From contig CAYWLN010000003.1 of assembly GCA_964459475.1 (NCBI GenBank), positions 1 to 36,510 of the forward strand: 36,510 nucleotides of DNA, written 5' to 3'. A program made the position numbers and the translations under genes. Numbering within the stretch: the first letter of the stretch is position 1; every line of letters starts with the position of its first letter. The DNA is from an uncultured Bdellovibrionales bacterium. Lineage in GTDB: Bacteria > Patescibacteriota > Minisyncoccia > Moranbacterales > UBA1568. Below are positions 6,436 to 36,510 of the stretch, in pieces. The notes below the pieces were generated by a model, which saw only the letters and a program-made list of their open reading frames with translations, was not told where the DNA came from and did no database searches.

Positions 6436-6459
6436 GTTTATGCTACGTGAGTCGAAGTG

Positions 6460-6532
6460 TGGACCTGAGGAGACTCGAACTCCTGACCTCCTCCATGCCA
6501 TGGAGGCGCTCTACCAGCTAAGCTACAGGCCC
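6460..6532 (-). tRNA. tRNA-Ala (GGC), CCA not encoded
   Basis: Minus strand: GGGCCTG TA GCTT AGCTGGTA GAGC G CCTCC ATGGCAT GGAGG AGGTC AGGAG TTCGAGT CTCCT CAGGTCC A. The G3:U70 Ala identity pair is present. Confidence 0.9.
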
Positions 6533-6594: not shown

Positions 6595-8370
6595 ATGCGA
6601 GTCTGGAGAAAATCCGCTATACTGAAGGCGAAATACTTCCTGACTGCTATGATTCGTATACTGGAACGTCTGCAACTGTCGAATATCTTTCTTCTTGGTT
6701 TCTTTTTGGTTCTCCCACTTTCACTCCGGCACACTTTTGTCGCCTGGAGTCCACTGGGGACGAGTGGCTTCAATGAGTATACTGACGTCTCAGTTTTTCT
6801 ATCGGACCTCGTGCTCCTGTGCTTTATTTTGCTAAAAATATTAGAAAACAAAAGAACATATTTGTCAATAAGTTGGTGGAGGGAAATGTTCCACGTGGAA
6901 CAATGGAAGCTAGCCGTTCTTTCGCCACTCCCCTTTTTGCTGTGGAGCCTCATTTCAACTTTGTGGTCAGAAAACCAATCGTTGGCTATTTATGCCTCAA
7001 TAAAGCTCATTGAAGGTTATTTGCTGTATCTGTTTTTATTGCTAACAATTGTTCCACGTGGAACAATTGAAGCGAGTGATAATAAAAGTTCCACGTGGAA
7101 CATGGCGGATTCGTTAAGTGTTGATCACAAATTGTTCCACGTGGAACAATCACAATCCAATATTTCTAAAGTTGTAAAAAATGTTCCACGTGGAACAATT
7201 GCTTTCTTGAGTCAGATTGTTTCAAAATGTTCCACGTGGAACATTCGTGGATACGTCATTCAAACACTCATTCTATCGGCATCTGCCCAGTCACTCGTTG
7301 CTTTGTATCAGTTTATGGCTCAAAAAAGCCTTGGACTAGCTTTCCTAGGTGAATCACAACTAGGGGCCCAGTGGCCAGGAATAGCCAAGATTCTTATGGA
7401 CGGAGAAGCAATCGTACGACCCTATGGCTTATTTCCGCACCCTAACGTTTTGGCTGGATTTTTAGGATTCGCGATTATTTTGGTAATATTGGAACCGATT
7501 CTTGGATCAGGAAAATTGTTCCACGTGGAACAATCACGGCTACTCTACCGTATCGTTCTTGGTACTCTCAGTTTTGTCTTTCTTGTCACTTTCTCAAAAG
7601 GAGCTATTCTAAGCCTCATTCTTGTTCTGTTTTATATATTTTGGCAAATGTTCCACGTGGAACAAATTATTCACGGTTCAGTAGTTAATACGATAACAAA
7701 TGTTCCACGTGGAACAATAGCGTATTTCAAACGCGTGTACTCGAATTGTTCCACGTGGAACATACATCAATACTGGTTGAAATTGTTCCACGTGGAACAT
7801 TTCTTTGTGGGAACTGTTTTTGTACTGGTTGGCGTTGTACTAGCGCTTGTGGTGCGTTCGCTTGATTGGTATTATTTCCTGTACCAACCTCTGACGGAGC
7901 GATGGCTCTACGTGCAAGGCTTTTTCAGAATGATTATTGATTCATTTTGGCTAGGTATCGGTCTTGGACAGTCTGTTTTCCTCATGCAACACTTTATTGA
8001 AAGAATCCTGTTTGACTGGGAGTTTCAGCCAATACATAACCTTTTTCTGTTAATATGGGCAGAGGTTGGACTAGTTGGCCTGGTCTTATTCGGCTATATT
8101 TGTTCCACGTGGAACAAAACTACTCAAATTCCAAAAATGTTCCACGTGGAACAATGCGTCCAGAAATTTGGTCGCAATCAAAACAATGTTCCACGTGGAA
8201 CAATTTATACTGTCGTCATTGAATCGATCTTTTCTCGAGGAATCTTACTCTATATCTTAATAACGAGCTTATTCGATCATTACTATTGGGATATTCAGCA
8301 GGGGCAACTCCTGTTCTGGACTGTCTGTGCTGTGGCAATTTCACTTAGACTCAGAGTATTGACAAAATAG
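6595..8370 (+). CDS. O-antigen ligase / Wzy_C-family polytopic membrane protein carrying 14 in-frame palindrome insertions
   Basis: Uninterrupted 591-aa ORF in AT-rich DNA, with a GGGAG-rich RBS upstream. Many hydrophobic helices. The family-typical segment is PIHNLFLLIWAEVGLVGLVLF (HN..L....E.G..G), together with LFPHPNVLAGFLGF. The hydrophilic stretches between helices contain the repeat-encoded peptides FHVEQ, VPRGT and STWN. An alternative start at 6649 is possible. Confidence 0.75.
   Translation: MRVWRKSAILKAKYFLTAMIRILERLQLSNIFLLGFFLVLPLSLRHTFVAWSPLGTSGFNEYTDVSVFLSDLVLLCFILLKILENKRTYLSISWWREMFHVEQWKLAVLSPLPFLLWSLISTLWSENQSLAIYASIKLIEGYLLYLFLLLTIVPRGTIEASDNKSSTWNMADSLSVDHKLFHVEQSQSNISKVVKNVPRGTIAFLSQIVSKCSTWNIRGYVIQTLILSASAQSLVALYQFMAQKSLGLAFLGESQLGAQWPGIAKILMDGEAIVRPYGLFPHPNVLAGFLGFAIILVILEPILGSGKLFHVEQSRLLYRIVLGTLSFVFLVTFSKGAILSLILVLFYIFWQMFHVEQIIHGSVVNTITNVPRGTIAYFKRVYSNCSTWNIHQYWLKLFHVEHFFVGTVFVLVGVVLALVVRSLDWYYFLYQPLTERWLYVQGFFRMIIDSFWLGIGLGQSVFLMQHFIERILFDWEFQPIHNLFLLIWAEVGLVGLVLFGYICSTWNKTTQIPKMFHVEQCVQKFGRNQNNVPRGTIYTVVIESIFSRGILLYILITSLFDHYYWDIQQGQLLFWTVCAVAISLRLRVLTK
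6887..6902. repeat. parS-like 16-bp perfect palindrome TGTTCCACGTGGAACA (copy 1)
   Basis: Exact palindrome read directly from the sequence. It is translated as MFHVEQ. Confidence 0.9.
7050..7243. repeat. cluster of 5 parS-like palindromes (copies 2-6)
   Basis: Core starts are 7050, 7087 (14-nt core GTTCCACGTGGAAC at 7088-7101), 7133, 7182 and 7228. The spacings are 37, 46, 49 and 46 bp, with unique AT-rich spacers. Confidence 0.9.
7517..7532. repeat. parS-like palindrome (copy 7)
   Basis: Exact TGTTCCACGTGGAACA, translated as LFHVEQ. Confidence 0.9.
7649..7799. repeat. cluster of 4 parS-like palindromes (copies 8-11)
   Basis: Core starts are 7649, 7701, 7747 and 7784. The spacings are 52, 46 and 37 bp. 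Confidence 0.9.
8101..8202. repeat. cluster of 3 parS-like palindromes (copies 12-14)
   Basis: Core starts are 8101, 8138 and 8187. The spacings are 37 and 49 bp. Confidence 0.9.
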
Positions 8371-8387
8371 TATTTTCGTGTTATAGA
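8359..8387 (+). promoter_or_regulatory. candidate promoter TTGACA-N17-TATAGA
   Basis: -35 at 8359-8364 (inside the last codons of the ligase-like ORF) and -10 at 8382-8387. It would produce a leader of about 260 nt before the ATG at 8658. Confidence 0.35.
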
Positions 8388-8583
8388 ATTTTATCGTACG
8401 ATTGAAGAGATACACCTCGAAATTGCGTCGAGAAATGCAACTTGACCCATGAGCGCACGAGGATATCAGTGAAGATATTTGGTGAAGCAAATTCAATACT
8501 GCGGTCATGAAATATATATGTCGTCATGAGTGGTGAGTACGATTTGTTTGATGAGGCACACACTTTTGCTGTTCGTAAAAAAA

Positions 8584-8601
8584 TGATATACTTTGAGTGA
8601 C
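8584..8601 (+). promoter_or_regulatory. extended -10 element TGaTATACT plus conserved downstream TTGAGTGAC
   Basis: TGATATACTTTGAGTGAC matches 27177-27194 at 17 of 18 positions. It lies 57 nt upstream of the ATG at 8658. Confidence 0.4.
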
Positions 8602-8657
8602 GTGAGAGTAATGAAGCCTCACATCGAGGACACAGGCGCTTAGAATAAAAACACAAT

Positions 8658-9668
8658 ATGTCGTTGGTACGTAAAGGCATTTCACAAGTAGAAATGAGAA
8701 CGTCGTTGTTTCTCTTTTTTGGTCTCCTCATTTTGAGTGTGACTTTTTTTGTATCGGCCGATGATACGATGACAGACAAAAATATTTTTCAGGATTCTGA
8801 TCAGGATGGTTTGAGCAATGACGAAGAAGCGCTCTATAAAACGGATCCACTTGATAAGGATAGTGATGACGATGGTTATACTGATGGTGTTGAGGTAGAG
8901 AGCGGGTATGATCCACTGAAGCCCGCTCCGGGTGACAGAGTTGTGTCAAATACTACAGTTCAAGCTAGCTCAACTCTGGGTGCTTCAGATTCACTGGGTG
9001 AAGTTGATGACGCAAATTTAACGACAGCAGTTTCGGAAGAGATCGCAGGGCTCATACAGCAGGGTAATTCTGCCGAGGGCGAAACAATTACGTTGGATGC
9101 AATTACGGAATCTGTCCAGGGTGTTATGGATAAATCTGATCAGGAAATTGTTCTGCCAGAAGTAGATATAGATTCTATTAATATCAAATCAGTCTCAAAG
9201 AAATTGAAAGGCGAGCGTCGTACAGAGGCTGAGAAGGAAGATATAGTTGAATACTTAACAGTGCTTGCTTATATCTTGGCCAACAATTCTCCGCAAAGTT
9301 TTAAGTCCGAGAAGGACCTTGGCTCTGTACTTACTTCAGCTGCGAGTGGAGCCCTTGGAGCAGTGACGACTGGCAATATGAAGTACCTGGAAGAGTTATC
9401 ATCGAAAAGTAATAAAATTCTATCGGAAATTGATACTATTGAAGTTCCTGAAGCCATGTTAGATGTTCATGTAAAGGCTATTAAAATGGTGAAGTATTCC
9501 TCTCAACTGAAGGATGAGGTAAAGCTTGATAATATTGATGATCCGATTGGTCAGATTTCTTCACTTGGAAAGGTACAGGGTTTCTTGTCAGCCTCTGTAG
9601 ATTTTTCATCTGAAATTTATGCGAAATTACAGACGTATAAAATTGATACTATTCCTTTGAGTCTCTGA
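8658..9668 (+). CDS. secreted or membrane-anchored protein with thrombospondin-type-3-like Asp-rich calcium-binding repeats
   Basis: Hydrophobic N-terminus (LFLFFGLLILSVTFFVSA), with an alternative ATG at 8694. Repeats DSDQDGLSNDEE and DKDSDDDGYTDGVE are present. The remainder is not recognised. Confidence 0.65.
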   Translation: MSLVRKGISQVEMRTSLFLFFGLLILSVTFFVSADDTMTDKNIFQDSDQDGLSNDEEALYKTDPLDKDSDDDGYTDGVEVESGYDPLKPAPGDRVVSNTTVQASSTLGASDSLGEVDDANLTTAVSEEIAGLIQQGNSAEGETITLDAITESVQGVMDKSDQEIVLPEVDIDSINIKSVSKKLKGERRTEAEKEDIVEYLTVLAYILANNSPQSFKSEKDLGSVLTSAASGALGAVTTGNMKYLEELSSKSNKILSEIDTIEVPEAMLDVHVKAIKMVKYSSQLKDEVKLDNIDDPIGQISSLGKVQGFLSASVDFSSEIYAKLQTYKIDTIPLSL

Positions 9669-9673
9669 AGTGT

Positions 9674-10735
9674 ATGTTTAGTCTACGCCACTACATAGCA
9701 AAGAAATTTTTTACGGTACTATTTGTTACTGTGTCAATTATTGGCCCGTCTCTTTTCCCGTTACGGGCTCATGCACAGGTTTGGGGTACGGATGATATTT
9801 TTGGTGATTTGGTAAAGCAAATGCTCGAGGTGGTTAAATCCCAAATTGATGGAGCAATTCTTGCTACTATAAAAGTAGCTGCAATTTCTGCCATGAATAG
9901 CAAAGTAGCTCAGATGATAGGGGGTACTTCACTTGGTGACCAACTCTTTATCTCAGATTGGAATGATTACTTGTATCAAAAGCCAGCCGAGCAAACGAAG
10001 CTTATCATGAACGATTTCTTTACACTGACTACTCGTGGCAAGTACGCTTCGGCCAACTATGTGGGAGTAGGGGATGTTACCGGGAGTGTTTCTGGGAACT
10101 ATCCAGCGTACCTGGTAGCACAAGCACAGCAGTCGATTGGCGATGAGAGCGCCGGACAAGCCGGCTTGGAATATAACCTGGATAGTTATTGCGCCAGTCC
10201 AGATGTCTTGTTTCAGGAGGGTGACTTCAGATGTTTTAATGCTATGATTTCGAATCCAGCTAATAATCCATTTGGGTATACCCTTTCCGCAACAGCATAC
10301 TACGCAAGAACGATGAATCAGAAGATTGAGCAGGCCAGGACGGAGGCCCAGTCATCAGGATATATCGGTAAAAAGCAAAATGGAATGACTATCGCGCCAG
10401 CGGCTACCATTGAAAATATGATGTCTGATGTTCAGAACATTGGAAACAATGTGATTGCTGCTGCGGAGAATCCGGGAATACTTTCAGGTATTGTCCAAGC
10501 AGCCATGAATCGGATTATTTCTAACATGATTCAAAAGGGCATTGGTAATGTTCAGGCAAAAATTCAACGTGAAATTAAGCGCGTTGATAATCAAGTGGTT
10601 GGCGCTTTGGATAAGGCTAATAAGCAGCTTGGTCCCGCAGCCAAATTTACCAAGGAGTGGAGTCAAAAATCTAATGTGGTAAAACCGTACACGGCACCAC
10701 CACCAGCGGCTTGTAGTGTTGAGCAAGGTTGTTAA
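9674..10735 (+). CDS. secreted hypothetical protein
   Basis: Signal peptide ending in LRAHAQ. The start is 5 nt after the preceding stop, consistent with an operon. The C-terminus is Pro- and Cys-rich (PPPAACSVEQGC). No family was recognised. Confidence 0.6.
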   Translation: MFSLRHYIAKKFFTVLFVTVSIIGPSLFPLRAHAQVWGTDDIFGDLVKQMLEVVKSQIDGAILATIKVAAISAMNSKVAQMIGGTSLGDQLFISDWNDYLYQKPAEQTKLIMNDFFTLTTRGKYASANYVGVGDVTGSVSGNYPAYLVAQAQQSIGDESAGQAGLEYNLDSYCASPDVLFQEGDFRCFNAMISNPANNPFGYTLSATAYYARTMNQKIEQARTEAQSSGYIGKKQNGMTIAPAATIENMMSDVQNIGNNVIAAAENPGILSGIVQAAMNRIISNMIQKGIGNVQAKIQREIKRVDNQVVGALDKANKQLGPAAKFTKEWSQKSNVVKPYTAPPPAACSVEQGC

Positions 10736-10770: not shown

Positions 10771-10774
10771 TGGG

Positions 10775-10848
10775 TGGGTGTATCTGGATTCGAACCAGAG
10801 ACCTCTACAATGTCAATGTAGCGCTCTAACCAACTGAGCTATACACCC
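10775..10848 (-). tRNA. tRNA-Val (GAC)
   Basis: Minus strand: GGGTGTA TA GCTC AGTTGGTTA GAGC G CTACA TTGACAT TGTAG AGGTC TCTGG TTCGAAT CCAGA TACACCC A. Confidence 0.9.
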
Positions 10849-17730: not shown

Positions 17731-20181
17731 ATGGAAGACAAGAAAGAATTTCATGACGGGAAAATAGAGCCACGGTCGATTGCGGAAGAAGTCCGACAGT
17801 CGTATCTCGACTATGCCATGAGTGTTATCGTGGCTCGAGCACTTCCGGATGTCCGTGATGGACTGAAACCTGTGCATCGACGCATCCTCTACTCGATGTG
17901 GTCAACCGGACTCCGGTCTACCGCCAAGTTTCGCAAGTCGGCAACGGTAGTCGGTGAAGTGCTCGGTAAGTATCATCCGCACGGAGACACCGCGGTCTAT
18001 GACACGATGGTCCGTATGGCCCAGGATTTTTCTCTTCGTTATCCGCTGGTCTGGGGCCAAGGAAACTTCGGTTCGATGGATGGTGATAGCGCGGCAGCAT
18101 ACCGGTATACCGAAGCGAAATTGAAGGCCATTGCCGAAGAAATGCTTGTTGATATCGACAAAGATACGGTGGATTTTATTCCCAACTTTGATGGGATGCA
18201 TGAGGAACCTCAGGTACTCCCAGCCAAACTTCCGCAACTCCTCTTGAACGGTACGGTGGGTATCGCTGTTGGTATGGCGACCAATATCCCGCCTCACAAC
18301 TTAAACGAACTGGTGGATGGTATCTGTCACTTGATTGACCATCCTGATGCCACCGTCGATGACCTGATGGAATTTATCAAAGGTCCGGATTTCCCAACGG
18401 GTGGTATTATTTACAATCAGAAAGACATCCGAGAGGCCTACGCGACTGGCAAGGGGCCGATTATGGCGCGGGCCAAAGCGGAAATTGTCGAGATGAAATC
18501 CGGTCTCTTCCAGATCGTAGTGACCGAAATGACCTACGCCACGAACAAGGCGTCGCTCATCATGAAGATTGCCGAGCTCTACAAAGAAAACAAGTTGCCT
18601 GGGATCAAGGATCTTCGCGATGAGTCGGACAAAGACGGGGTGCGGGTGGTAATTGACCTGAAGAAGGAAGCTTTTCCGCAGAAGGTCTTGAATCAGCTCT
18701 ATCAGATGACTGACCTCCAGAAGAATTTTAACGTGAACATGCTCGCGCTTGTGGACGGTGTTGATCCGCAGATTCTGACCCTCAAGTCCATCCTCGAGCA
18801 CTATGTGAAACACCGCGAAGTTGTGGTTGTCCGTCGAACCGAACATGATTTGAAGAAAGCCAAGGACCGGGCGCATATCCTCGAAGGACTCAAGATTGCC
18901 CTTGATCACATCGACGCGATCATCGAAACCATCAAGAAGTCGGCCAACAAAGAGGAGGCCCATATGAACTTGATGAAGAAGTTTAAGCTCTCAGAACTCC
19001 AGGCCACGGCTATTCTCGAGATGCGCCTCCAGACCCTCTCTGGATTGGAACGAAAGAAGATTGAGGAAGAGTTGGAAGAAAAGTACAAACTCATTGCCTA
19101 CCTCGAAGATCTCCTCAAACACCGAAAAAAGATTTTGGCCCTAGTGAAGAGCGAACTCATCGAAGTCCGTGATCGATTTGGTGACGAGCGGAAGACCAAA
19201 GTAGTGAAGGGTGCTATTGGAGAGTTCCGCCAGGAAGACCTCATCCCAAACGAAGAGGCCATCATCACCCTCACCGAGGATGGCTACATCAAGCGCATGA
19301 ACCCAAGTGTTTATCGTGTCCAGAAGCGCGGAGGCAAAGGTGTGATCGGCGCGACCACCAAGGAAGAAGACAAGATTGCCAAGGTACTCACGATTGAGAC
19401 CCATGACAACCTCATGTTCTTTACGAATTCCGGCAAAGTCTTCCAGACCAAAGCCTATGAAATTCCAGAATCGACTCGAACGTCCAAGGGTCAGGCCATT
19501 GTAAATTTCCTCCAGCTCTCTCAGGAAGAAAAAATCACCGCGGTAGTAGCCCTCAACAAGGGGAGTGACTACAAGTACCTCTTTATGGCGACCGAAAAAG
19601 GGACCATCAAGAAGACCAAACTGGAAGACTTTGAAAATGTGAGACGGAGTGGTCTCATCGCTATCACCCTCGAAAAGGGTGACACCCTCGGTTGGGTGGG
19701 TGCGACGACCGGAAGTGACGAAGTCGTCCTCACCACGAACGACGGCCAAGCGATCCGCTTCAAAGAGTCTGATGTCCGGCCGATGGGTCGTAACGCGGCT
19801 GGTGTCCGTGGTATGAAGCTAAAGAATGTGGATGTCTTGGTCGGGATGGACGTCGTCCTCAAGGGTGACAAGGATCTCGAGCTCCTCATCCTCTCCCAAA
19901 ACGGCTACGGCAAGCGAAGTGAACTGAAAAGCTACAAAGTCCAGAAGCGTGGTGGATCCGGGATCAAGACCATGAAGGTGACGCCAAAGACTGGTAAGCT
20001 CGTTGGCGCCAAGGTCGTGAGCATGGCCAACATCGAAGATGACCTCATCCTCACATCGTCCAAGGGCACCATCATCCGTATCCCATTCAAGAGCATTCCA
20101 AAATTGGGTCGCGTCACTCAGGGCGTCCGGATCATGAAGCCTCAGTCCGGAGACAGCGTGGCAGCGTTTACGATTCTGTAG
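17731..20181 (+). CDS. gyrA: DNA gyrase subunit A
   Basis: Conserved N-terminus [12 protein letters not shown], the active-site region [10 protein letters not shown] with catalytic Tyr, and C-terminal beta-pinwheel repeats. The length of 816 aa indicates no intein. Confidence 0.97.
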
Positions 20182-25969: not shown

Positions 25970-26006
25970 TTTTGGCTTCATAAAAGCATTACTACCGTAT
26001 CAAAAA

Positions 26007-26029
26007 GAAGTCACAGACTTCTTTTTTTG
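26007..26029 (+). terminator. rho-independent terminator
   Basis: GAAGTC-aca-GACTTC followed by TTTTTTT. Confidence 0.75.
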
Positions 26030-26111
26030 TGGTCACGAGCGTGTGAAACAAACAAGCTGATGTGAAGTGCTCTGTTTGTGTTTGATTCAAGCGATTATTA
26101 CCAGTCACTGA

Positions 26112-26140
26112 TTGACTCGAGGGTAATTTTCTGCTATAAT
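26112..26140 (+). promoter_or_regulatory. near-consensus promoter TTGACT-N17-TATAAT
   Basis: -35 at 26112-26117, a 17-nt spacer, and -10 at 26135-26140. No ORF follows for about 620 nt. Confidence 0.65.
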
Positions 26141-26146
26141 TGACTT

Positions 26147-26733
26147 GTGATGTTGAAATTTCTTTGACAACTTGCTCTCTTCAACCGTACCGAACGGTGA
26201 AAGAACTCCCATCGCAATGCCCCCTCATTGTGACGGGGATTCTTTCACTGTTCAAGAGTCATAGCAATGTACTATGACCGCTCCGTCCTAACACGGAGAC
26301 TCAAACAAAAACAAAAAACTCCTGAAATATAATACATGCAGGAGAAAAACAAAAAGAAACAAAAAAACAGTTCTTTCAAATAGAGAGGCGTTGGCTACAC
26401 AGAGGCTGGAAAGCGTTCTTGCTCCTGTGTAGTCAATGACCTCACCCAAAAAAGGCTTCGCGCCAGAGAACGGTGAAGGGAGAAGTGACGAAAAAGTTAG
26501 GATCGTCGCGAAACTGCAAGTGCACAAAATACAGATCTCAATTGGATTATAGATGCTTCCTCACCCGTAGCTATATAACCTAGACATCTGTTGGCACATG
26601 CAACGTTCGGGCGTACAGCCAAATAATTTATTATCGGGCGATAGTACGCCCGGACACCAACATGTTTCTTAGACGGTGACCGGGTTAGAAGTAGCGTAGA
26701 ATAGAAACAGAACTCCCCACAGGGTGTTTTTTT
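26147..26733 (+). ncRNA. candidate large structured non-coding RNA (family not identified)
   Basis: Bounded by the promoter above and a terminator (AAC-t-CCC-caca-GGG-t-GTT plus TTTTT at 26711-26733). The track shows no plus-strand ORF of 60 aa or more. At least nine local Watson-Crick helices of 5-9 bp are present, including GTGAAAGAA/TTCTTTCAC (26197-26205 with 26240-26248), CTACACAG/CTGTGTAG (26395-26402 with 26425-26432) and GGGCGTAC/GTACGCCC (26609-26616 with 26644-26651). A-rich linkers lie at 26301-26318 and 26345-26368. Confidence 0.45.
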
Positions 26734-26769
26734 GTTGCCCAATTCCTCATTTCGGCGTAGGGTAGTGGT

Positions 26770-27159
26770 ATGAAACGGTTTCAACTCGCCTCTCCACTCG
26801 GCGCTCTCGGTGAGGAGCTGGCCTCCCGTTACCTCAAGGACAAGGGGTACCGGATTCTTGCGACCAATTATTGTAATGTAAAGGGGAAACGATTGGGGGA
26901 GATAGATATCGTAGCCGAGTATCAGGGGGAACTGGTGTTTGTAGAAGTGAAGAGTCGGCTCAGAGGCGCAGAAGGCTCTGCTCTCCCGGAGGCGGGTATT
27001 ACCAGAGACAAGCTGCGCAAATTGGCCCGTATTGCCGAGTGTTACCTCCGAGAGACGAAGCGTGAGAATACGCAGTATCATTTCGATGGGATAGCCATCC
27101 TTTATGACCCAATTCAGAAAAAGGCTCAGATACGCCACCTGGAGCACATATTTTTCTAG
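26770..27159 (+). CDS. yraN: YraN-family (UPF0102) endonuclease-like protein
   Basis: 129 aa containing GEELA..YL...GY.IL..N.....GEIDIVA.....LVFVEVK.R. Confidence 0.85.
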   Translation: MKRFQLASPLGALGEELASRYLKDKGYRILATNYCNVKGKRLGEIDIVAEYQGELVFVEVKSRLRGAEGSALPEAGITRDKLRKLARIAECYLRETKRENTQYHFDGIAILYDPIQKKAQIRHLEHIFF

Positions 27160-27194
27160 ACAACCTACCCAAAATTTGATATACTTTGAGTAAC
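27157..27194 (+). promoter_or_regulatory. promoter TAGACA-N17-(TGa)TATACT with conserved TTGAGTAAC downstream
   Basis: -35-like element at 27157-27162 and extended -10 at 27177-27185. The 18-mer at 27177-27194 matches 8584-8601 at 17 of 18 positions. Confidence 0.45.
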
Positions 27195-27222
27195 AGTAGC
27201 TATAACCCTTCTTCTCAATTGT

Positions 27223-30534: not shown

Positions 30535-30891
30535 ATGAAAATTTCCTCCTACAGGGATCTCGTTGTCTGGCAAAAGTCAATGGATTTGGTAGTTTCCGTG
30601 TATCAACTTACGGAAGTGTTTCCGAAAGAGGACGTATTTGGACTTACGTCACAAATGCGAAGGGCTGCTGTTTCCCTCCCATCGAATATTGCTGAAGGGC
30701 GGTACCGTGGAACACGAAAGGATTTTGCGCATTTTCTAAGAATCGCGTTTGCTTCTGGGGCAGAGCTAGAAACACAACTAGAAATTTCACGTAGACTTTC
30801 AAGAATACCATTGATTGAGTACGAACGAATGAGTAATCAACTCGGCGAAGTTATGAAAATGCTGAATGTAATGATAAGTAAACTCTCATGA
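30535..30891 (+). CDS. four-helix-bundle protein (23S rRNA intervening-sequence protein / Avd-like family)
   Basis: 118 aa. SYRDLVVWQKSMDLVVSVYQLT..FPKE..FGLTSQMRRAAVS.PSNIAEG is characteristic of the family. Its stop overlaps the rsmA ATG (ATGA). Confidence 0.88.
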   Translation: MKISSYRDLVVWQKSMDLVVSVYQLTEVFPKEDVFGLTSQMRRAAVSLPSNIAEGRYRGTRKDFAHFLRIAFASGAELETQLEISRRLSRIPLIEYERMSNQLGEVMKMLNVMISKLS

Positions 30892-35849: not shown

Positions 35850-35879
35850 TAAAAAAGAAGTCCTAGGACTTCTTTTTTC
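35850..35879. terminator. bidirectional terminator (perfect palindrome)
   Basis: AAAAAAGAAGTCCTAGGACTTCTTTTTT lies between the convergent helicase and recombinase genes and overlaps the recombinase stop codon. Confidence 0.7.
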
Positions 35880-36510
35880 TTTTCGCGTGAAATGATTGGT
35901 GGACTTCTTTGAGGCGTTCGTTGGTGACGTGGGTGTAGATCTGGGTCGTCGTGATAGAAGAATGACCGAGCATGGCCTGGACGCTTCTGATGTCAGCACC
36001 ATTAGCAAGGAGGTCAGTAGCAAAGGAGTTGTGAGAGACAAAGCCGTCAGTAATAAGATTCTCAGTCTCAGCCACTGCAAAGTCATAGACGGGAAAGTGA
36101 CCAGAGAGGGTATCGAGTGAGGTGACACGAAGCCATTTGAATTGGTTTTTTCCTGCAAGACGTCGAAGTAAGTTGAGTCGTTCATCTTTGAAACCTATGC
36201 GCTTCAAGCGATTATAAAAGAGAAGAAGAGTATTTTTGGTAGGTACTATTTTGCCACTAGTATAGCGAGATGGATATCGCAGGGTCTGTTGATCAGCGCG
36301 CTTACTGTAGATAGAATATCCGTTTTCTTTGGCCTTACGTACGAGATCGGCGAGCATAGCTCCGGCTGGAATCTTTTCACCGACGTAATCATGTTCGATA
36401 GCAAAGCTTTTCAGTGTAGGAACAAGCCGGCGGAAGCTTTCCTGGTCTGGTTTACATAAAATTTGTAGGATATACATCGTATGGTCAATGGGGTTTGTGC
36501 TGAGTGGTAG
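35863..36510 (-). CDS. XerC/XerD-family tyrosine recombinase interrupted by an intein (5' end beyond the window)
   Basis: The last 54 aa, [34 protein letters not shown], form the box II / catalytic Tyr region. The frame stays open to position 36510. Confidence 0.8.
36028..36510 (-). other. intein, C-terminal portion (at least 161 aa, partial)
   Basis: It ends in [21 protein letters not shown] (blocks F and G) and is followed immediately by the +1 nucleophile Ser (codon 36025-36027) of the extein SFATDLL. Confidence 0.75.

Follow-up and report, generated by a model that had tools for sequence, protein, structure and literature searches.

In-frame parS palindromes form a putative dense centromere within the loops of a Wzy_C/WaaL-like membrane protein gene in Patescibacteria

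Can a bacterial chromosome keep a centromere inside the coding sequence of a single gene? The question is raised by contig CAYWLN010000003.1, of which we analyzed a stretch of 36,510 bp (hereafter the window, with position 1 as its first base). The window resembles a chromosome segment from the candidate phyla radiation (CPR)/Patescibacteria, and the 16-bp palindrome TGTTCCACGTGGAACA, a word known from chromosomal parS sites, recurs in a short part of it. In textbook parS/ParB centromeres, a few sites are dispersed in the neighborhood of oriC and parAB. In the window, 14 sites are packed into 1.3 kb, all of them inside one gene. The evidence described below suggests that these palindromes are probably chromosomal parS sites, predicted to load ParB, and that together they would make up a dense centromere embedded in the loops of a polytopic membrane protein.

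The window was searched for TGTTCCACGTGGAACA with up to two mismatches allowed, and the chance level was taken from 100 dinucleotide shuffles. The search returned 14 matches, 13 of them perfect and one with a single mismatch, while the shuffles gave 0.00. The 13 perfect sites fall at the positions given in a first-pass annotation of this DNA, and the grouping of the sites as 1+5+1+4+3 that it described is visible in the sequence. The mismatched site, AGTTCCACGTGGAACA (AGTTCC...), starts at 7087 and corresponds to what had been recorded as a 14-bp copy at 7088. Outside 6887-8202 there is no further match at up to two mismatches in the 36.5-kb window, so that a density of ~10 sites per kb in the array compares with none in the remaining 35 kb. 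The A/T-rich flanks noted in the first pass are also real: base frequencies pooled over 524 sites from 74 related arrays read A (0.52), A (0.67), A (0.85), W, and then T (99%), against a background of 0.30 for A. The conserved word therefore reaches beyond 16 bp, as AAAW-16mer-WTTT.

The 16-mer is exactly that of parS2 and parS3 of Pseudomonas aeruginosa PAO1, which have been validated experimentally (PMC4368675, Table 1), and of the parS of Pseudomonas putida (PMC7022226, Table 1). In Myxococcus xanthus, 22 sites follow the consensus TGTTCCACGTGGAACG (PMC7022226, Table 1; PMC3899335). Each of the 13 perfect copies in the window is a 16-bp palindrome that fits the chromosomal parS consensus tGTTNCACGTGAAACa and is bound by ParB elsewhere, and the sites are localized rather than dispersed, both within the window and in 80 related loci. 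When one genome from each GTDB species was scanned for pairs of the 16-mer 15-45 bp apart, at least 120 matches from many phyla were obtained. Among the matches listed, a hidden Markov model (HMM) of ParB detected a ParB open reading frame (ORF) within the 8-kb slice at 52 of 116 non-CPR loci with such a pair, which ties the 16-mer to ParB in ordinary bacteria.

All 14 sites lie in a single intact ORF of 591 aa that the first pass had overlooked (Table 1). The encoded protein scores 33.1 bits against the Pfam family PF04932 Wzy_C (O-antigen ligase), for which the curated cut-off is 31.7. An AlphaFold2 model built on 57 homologues has a confident helical core (predicted local distance difference test, pLDDT, 80; predicted template modeling score, pTM, 0.84), and its best fold match in the PDB, found with Foldseek, is the WaaL O-antigen ligase 7tpg_B (403 aa; E 6e-5, TM 0.61, probability 1.00). 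Eighteen alignment columns are invariant in the 57 homologues, among them R275, H282, and H481. Domain, fold, and catalytic-loop His/Arg residues all point to membership of the Wzy_C/WaaL family. The palindrome is translated in all three frames and contains no stop codon in any of them, reading as FHVE(Q/H) (TG, TTC CAC GTG GAA CA.), VPRGT (T, GTT CCA CGT GGA ACA), or CSTWN (TGT TCC ACG TGG AAC). Because this GG variant of parS lacks a stop in every frame, each copy is simply translated with the gene. Dips in model confidence coincide with the parS-coded segments (residues 91-100, 156-213, 301-320, 351-400, and 511-534), which are predicted to be disordered, and the model would place the sites in five insertion-like loops of a polytopic membrane enzyme. 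Counting helices relative to R275...H282-P-N and Q478-P-x-H481 suggests that all five loops are probably on the cytoplasmic side. We read these loops as tolerating the translated parS copies.

Table 1 Features of the array and its host gene. Cluster entries list site starts; frames are named by the first residue of the encoded peptide or by the peptide with its preceding residue.
Feature	Position	Strand	Frames; start-to-start spacings (nt)	Loop, model confidence, and other support
Gene for a predicted Wzy_C/WaaL-like polytopic membrane protein	6595..8370	+		Pfam, AlphaFold2 model, fold match, invariant columns
Predicted parS site 1, perfect	6887..6902		M-FHVEQ	Loop aa ~90-104; pLDDT falls to 55 at residues 91-100; homologue motifs recur at the same alignment position
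Five-site cluster: 7050, 7087 (1 mismatch), 7133, 7182, 7228	7050..7243		V, C-like (SSTWN), F, V, C; 37, 46, 49, 46 (each 1 mod 3)	Loop aa ~152-216; pLDDT <50 at 156-200 and 211-213; with 110 homologues aligned, occupancy falls and motif counts peak
Single perfect site	7517..7532		L-FHVEQ	Loop aa ~305-314; pLDDT 71-74 at residues 301-320; position kept in homologues
Four perfect sites: 7649, 7701, 7747, 7784	7649..7799		F, V, C, F; 52, 46, 37 (each 1 mod 3)	Loop aa ~352-402; pLDDT 47-59 at residues 351-400
Three perfect sites: 8101, 8138, 8187	8101..8202		C, F, V; 37, 49 (both 1 mod 3)	Loop aa ~502-536; pLDDT <50 at residues 516-534

The arrangement is shared with relatives. An identical host protein occurs on two short Logan contigs. 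A Moraniibacteriota metagenome-assembled genome (MAG; L123, GCA_049287005.1, contig JBAQEZ010000003.1 of 766,823 bp) has the same gene order and 17 perfect sites in the orthologous ORF, with zero sites in the 20 kb surrounding the array gene. The Moranbacteria-type MAGs L215 and L216 also keep the gene order of the window and carry 14 and 18 sites, respectively. An equivalent array at the syntenic position of related genomes, a prospect raised in the first pass, is therefore present in all three. In more distant Parcubacteria (L131/L132 and L133), the array gene is linked to gyrA, S1, tilS, and ftsH in a rearranged order.

The best 120 homologues of the host protein (28-68% identity) all carry between 1 and 18 parS-coded peptides. 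Because the search that found them preselects shared 5-mers, and so favors parS-bearing proteins, the survey was repeated in two ways that make no use of parS. In the first, a 98-aa core segment was compared by phmmer with 1.84 billion cluster representatives and the best 150 matches were kept; among the 97 of these with at least 400 aa, the motif occurs at least once in 78, at least three times in 64, and at least five times in 44. In the second, a search of metagenome loci keyed on three peptide patterns lacking parS gave 80 loci, in which GTTNCACGTGNAAC is present in the gene at least once in 79 and at least five times in 52. In total, these loci have 556 sites in 142 kb of gene versus 2 in 672 kb of flanks. 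In an alignment of 110 sequences, the motifs occupy five fixed positions that separate conserved hydrophobic blocks, and in 70 of 74 loci every site lies within one open frame. Members with names belong to Moraniibacteriota/Moranbacteria, the 'Parcubacteria group', the 'Patescibacteria group', and Minisyncoccota. The in-gene arrangement is thus ancient and inherited across Moraniibacteriota and related Parcubacteria, in a fixed chromosomal neighborhood, rbfA-tRNA-wzy-...-ftsH-tilS-gmk-rpsA-...-gyrA.

Several of the related loci call for separate comment. Contigs assembled from short reads often end at the array, as in L127, which stops after rbfA, and in L001/L002. In L123 (10001-11278), the gene caller gave 425 aa for a host ORF with a full length of ~600 aa. 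A contig binned as Bdellovibrionales (L063, CAZQLN010000002.1, 724-2262) has a 513-aa ORF with 7 parS sites and no Pfam match; it bears the signature motifs FNEY, GYGLFxHPN, QPIHN, and DHFFY of the Wzy-like family, and the contig possibly comes from CPR and was binned wrongly. In a Verrucomicrobia MAG (L109, CAMOCC010000016.1, 2692-2841), four perfect parS sites form an in-frame insert, FHVEQ...FHVEH...FHVEH...CSTWN, in a 745-aa GidA/MnmG ORF, so that in-frame parS clusters in coding loops occur outside CPR too. The gidA/mnmG gene is a classical neighbor of oriC and parAB.

Comparison of the homologues indicates that selection acts on the DNA word and not on the peptide. One DNA word yields three different peptides, and identical codons are used by 164 of 170 VPRGT and 123 of 127 CSTWN peptides. 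Against eight orthologues, identity is 43-71% in the protein core and 20-40% for loop residues not encoded by parS, compared with 95-98% for the parS-coded residues. In L215, all 14 of the 14 sites have the sequence of the other canonical parS, TGTTTCACGTGAAACA. These sites read only as FHVK[HQ] and VSRET, and only two frames are used because the third would read TGA.

Some sites in L176 (10205-11637), L152, L157, and L216 carry site-specific palindromic extensions, up to a perfect palindrome of 34 bp, for example TTCTGAAAA-16mer-TTTTCAGAA. In relatives with extensions the mean complementary flank run is 2.26 versus 1.55 in within-array shuffles; the sites of the window itself are without palindromic extension (0.92 versus 0.99 in shuffles). 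The extensions possibly represent 'growth' of a quasi-palindrome by template switching.

The spacing of the sites follows a rule set by the reading frame of the host gene. In the window, all nine start-to-start spacings within clusters are 1 mod 3 (Table 1), so that successive sites cycle through frames V, C, and F. For neighbors no more than 80 nt apart in the 120 homologues, 491 spacings are 1 mod 3, 97 are 2 mod 3, and 8 are 0 mod 3. In 74 independent arrays, the corresponding counts are 104, 78, and 8 for neighbors up to 80 nt apart (chi-square, p = 1e-17) and 87, 89, and 84 for neighbors farther apart than 80 nt (p = 0.93). Avoidance of in-frame spacing depends on distance, with in-frame neighbors accounting for 2 of 152 pairs at up to 50 bp, 6 of 47 at 51-80 bp, and 4 of 25 at 81-120 bp; beyond 120 bp they make up 81 of 238, or about one third overall, unevenly between bins. 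Deletion between short direct repeats declines steeply with distance. The simplest reading is that in-frame neighbors collapse harmlessly and vanish, while out-of-frame neighbors persist since their collapse causes a frameshift. As close neighbors are almost always out of frame, a deletion from repeat to repeat would frameshift the host gene, and purifying selection would thereby prevent collapse of the array; the frame rule would then amount to protection from deletion, and it implies that the host gene is itself under purifying selection. Ancestral phasing that is partly 'frozen', because only indels of 3n are allowed, contributes, but alone it leaves unexplained why the 2 mod 3 class is common and the 0 mod 3 class rare. 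An origin of the clusters by simple tandem duplication was rejected: the spacers in the window are dissimilar, and duplication of a single unit leaves the gene intact only with in-frame spacing, which is the rarest class.

Based on these observations, we propose the following model, in which ParB binding and a role in segregation or SMC loading are inferred from the identity of the sites. A ParB-family CTPase clamp would load at the 14 closely packed sites, and the loaded clamps would build a single large complex for partition and SMC loading. The sites would be kept inside a gene whose disordered loops tolerate parS-coded peptides and whose integrity guards the array against repeat deletion. 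The first-pass annotation had likened the array to a dense centromere of plasmid, Myxococcus, or Streptomyces style. The density and confinement of the sites do fit a ParB-loading platform, but the array is not non-coding DNA, being part of the coding sequence of the Wzy_C/WaaL-like gene. The further idea that the in-gene centromere is an adaptive design is possible but doubtful. Such a design would combine a 'frameshift guard', in which any repeat deletion is lethal to an indispensable host gene and an array prone to instability is thereby stabilized, with transertion: as the polytopic protein is inserted into the membrane during transcription, the centromere may become physically anchored to the envelope, in ultra-small cells that lack par genes or have them at another locus.

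A number of observations weigh against a ParB-loading centromere. Chromosomal parS sites normally lie close to oriC, within the origin-proximal ~20% of the chromosome and usually in the vicinity of parAB or dnaA. In the window, Pfam scans that extended to E <= 1 for unannotated ORFs detected no ParB or ParA domain, and the statement in the first pass that parA and parB are absent holds for every sizeable ORF. A home-made ParB HMM, for which the positive control worked, had no hits in 100 CPR loci (1.08 Mb, partly redundant), and parAB was not found within ±10 kb of the array in ~100 CPR loci. Signature motifs of ParA and DnaA are absent from the array flanks in related loci. The window has no cluster of DnaA boxes (3 DnaA-box-like matches versus 6.8 expected), and its GC skew rises monotonically with a weak minimum near 3 kb and no clear switch near the array; comparison of GC skew across 19 related loci was ambiguous. 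A coding location is also counter-intuitive, since a ParB complex bound to the gene might impede transcription. In addition, the counts of sites and loci are not phylogenetically independent. With regard to the origin, gyrA is present in the window as the first pass had stated (17731-20181), and linkage of the array gene to gyrA is conserved across related loci. Should these genomes really lack ParB, the array would be a parS-like centromere for some other factor.

The alternative that best withstands the evidence, although we consider it unlikely, is that the palindromes serve a different sequence-specific binder in nucleoid organization or regulation, such as a Noc-like or diverged ParB paralogue, a regulator of wzy or surface glycans, or a restriction-modification or uptake factor. 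The missing parAB linkage, unlike the situation at the non-CPR loci, would be expected in this case, and the conserved A-rich flank exceeds the classical 16-bp parS. The host is, moreover, always a cell-envelope gene followed by two conserved secreted or unannotated proteins. However, validated ParB sites have exactly the same core, and the only departure from it seen in any lineage is to the second canonical parS, while Noc sites and plasmid ParB sites differ in sequence. An organization with 14-18 operators within a coding region is unlike that usual for regulators, and uptake sequences are dispersed genome-wide, whereas the sites here are confined to one gene.

It is very improbable that the palindrome is selfish or self-propagating and has no cellular function, whether as a repetitive extragenic palindromic (REP) element, a miniature inverted-repeat transposable element (MITE), an analog of the Rickettsia palindromic elements (RPEs), or a product of hairpin template switching. 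Such an origin would account for palindromes translated in-frame in tolerant loops, for copy numbers from 1 to 18 between lineages, and for the extensions and long complementary flank runs, which are as template switching would give. Dispersal of the REP/MITE type, which the first pass had named as the observation that would overturn a centromere, is at odds with the absence of sites elsewhere in the window and their near absence from the flanks of the 80 loci. Dispersed REP, MITE, or RPE elements were rejected on the grounds of this confinement to one gene and of the five fixed loop positions, which hold across proteins only 28-68% identical. The 16 bp are near-invariant while adjacent spacers drift, and the word is that of a functional parS; in one lineage, every site has changed together to the alternative parS variant.

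Marginally less probable still is a recombination or phase-variation device that switches off or remodels the Wzy-like protein. Surface-glycan-type enzymes are often phase-variable, and with neighbor spacing almost never a multiple of three, any repeat deletion frameshifts the gene. Deletion is irreversible, however, so no switch is possible, and the ORF is intact in 70 of the 74 loci. Assemblies often break at the array, as recombination might lead one to expect, but short-read contigs would be expected to end at repeats of any kind. Phase variation also leaves the exact parS word and its concerted variant change unexplained. Selection of the repeats as a protein motif in the enzyme loops is effectively refuted: although hundreds of homologues contain FHVEQ, VPRGT, and CSTWN, the three peptides are unrelated and have only their DNA in common, their codons are almost never replaced by synonymous ones, disorder is predicted for the segments, and in L215 the peptides change while the DNA is still parS.

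A CRISPR or TIGR array was also rejected as a candidate. Arrays of both kinds are non-coding, alternate directional repeats with spacers, and adjoin cas or tas genes, and TIGR repeats feature box C/D motifs (PMC12045711); the array described here lies inside an intact ORF, its repeat is perfectly palindromic, and the window has no Cas or Tas/Nop domains.

The gene order of the window begins with a 3D-domain protein, tRNA-Cys/Leu, an ABC transporter, UDG, DHH, RbfA, and tRNA-Arg/Ala, continues with the Wzy-like gene, a TSP3-repeat protein, and two hypothetical proteins, and then runs through tRNA-Val, FtsH, TilS, Gmk, S1, a metallo-beta-lactamase-fold protein, GyrA, and PNPase, on to UvrD and an intein-containing tyrosine recombinase. 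An Rfam scan of the window found tRNAs only. The Wzy-like gene, the TSP3-repeat protein, and a 353-aa hypothetical protein form a low-GC block (7000-10700; 0.40 versus 0.50-0.55) bounded by tRNA-Ala (6459-6532) and tRNA-Val (10773-10848), and these three genes also travel together in L123, L215, and L216. In 19 related loci as well, the GC content of the array region, 0.354, is below that of its flanks, 0.40 and 0.41. Elsewhere in the window, the minus strand at 35863-36477 encodes the C-terminal part of the tyrosine recombinase (Xer/phage-integrase type), whose intein has a LAGLIDADG homing-endonuclease domain; the full intein-bearing gene is found on L125 (6460-8709, 749 aa). A region of ~1.25 kb at 25970-27222 has no convincing gene and no Pfam or Rfam match; a 246-aa minus-strand ORF in it looks spurious, and a 28-nt imperfect hairpin is located at 26192-26253. 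The window also has a stand-alone gene at 30535-30891 that encodes a '23S rRNA intervening-sequence protein' (PF05635), with a G5/DPBB lytic transglycosylase-like gene on one side and ksgA on the other.

If the palindromes are indeed parS, a whole CPR lineage, represented by hundreds of protein clusters, carries a parS array of ~10 sites per kb in one gene, unlinked to par genes. The locus would then be a natural case of dual-coding DNA, in which a cis-acting chromosome-maintenance element and a protein are written on the same bases, and a starting point for studying how uncultivated Patescibacteria segregate their chromosomes. Avoidance of in-frame spacing, which depends on distance, is a quantitative signature that makes protection of a repeat array by its host gene testable. 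On the practical side, arrays of this kind break short-read assemblies, shorten gene calls, and could pass for CRISPR-like repeats. Literature searches found no paper on parS/ParB in CPR, Patescibacteria, Parcubacteria, or Saccharibacteria, or on in-frame parS arrays.

The array can be compared with several known systems. With the Pseudomonas ParABS system it shares an identical 16-bp perfect palindrome, which is a high-affinity ParB site. The 4 sites of that system are origin-proximal, in the vicinity of oriC and parAB, and extend over kilobases, while the window has its 14 in one gene with no parAB within at least 10 kb. The centromeres of M. xanthus and Streptomyces also have many (~20) near-identical parS sites in one chromosomal region. 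Next to parAB, those sites extend across many kilobases that include several genes and intergenic regions, in contrast to the ~10 per kb in a single ORF with reading-frame phasing described here. Among plasmids, the sopC centromere of F consists of 12 repeats of 43 bp; plasmid centromeres are non-coding, adjoin parAB or sopAB, and have unrelated sequences. Tandem plasmid centromeres resemble the array in site density, in regular short spacing, and in the presumed nucleation of one large partition complex. The array differs from them in being coding, unlinked to par genes, and built from the chromosomal parS word, and we rejected a plasmid-type tandem centromere (sopC/parC-like) on the basis of the coding nature of the array and of the lack of parA or parB within ±10 kb.

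Other systems provide precedents for the location of the sites. In Bacillus subtilis, a functional parS lies inside the spo0J coding sequence and is translated with it, but only one site is involved and it falls in a conserved portion of the gene, whereas here 14-18 sites occupy dedicated insertion loops. RPEs, which are ~100-150 bp long, dispersed over many genes, and considered selfish, likewise show that surface loops of otherwise conserved proteins can accommodate palindromic DNA as additional peptide. The sites described here differ in that they are 16 bp long, occur in one gene only, and match a functional centromere word exactly. The host protein resembles the WaaL/Wzy_C family in its Wzy_C score, in its best fold match, and in the conserved His/Arg/Gln-Pro-x-His motifs, yet it is ~150-190 aa longer than WaaL, with the excess concentrated in the five parS-encoding loops. 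Chromosomal centromeres with many sites were already known, as were single intragenic parS sites; apparently new, as far as we found, are an array of 10 sites per kb in the loops of one conserved gene, its phylum-level inheritance, its lack of linkage to parAB, and the frame-phasing rule.

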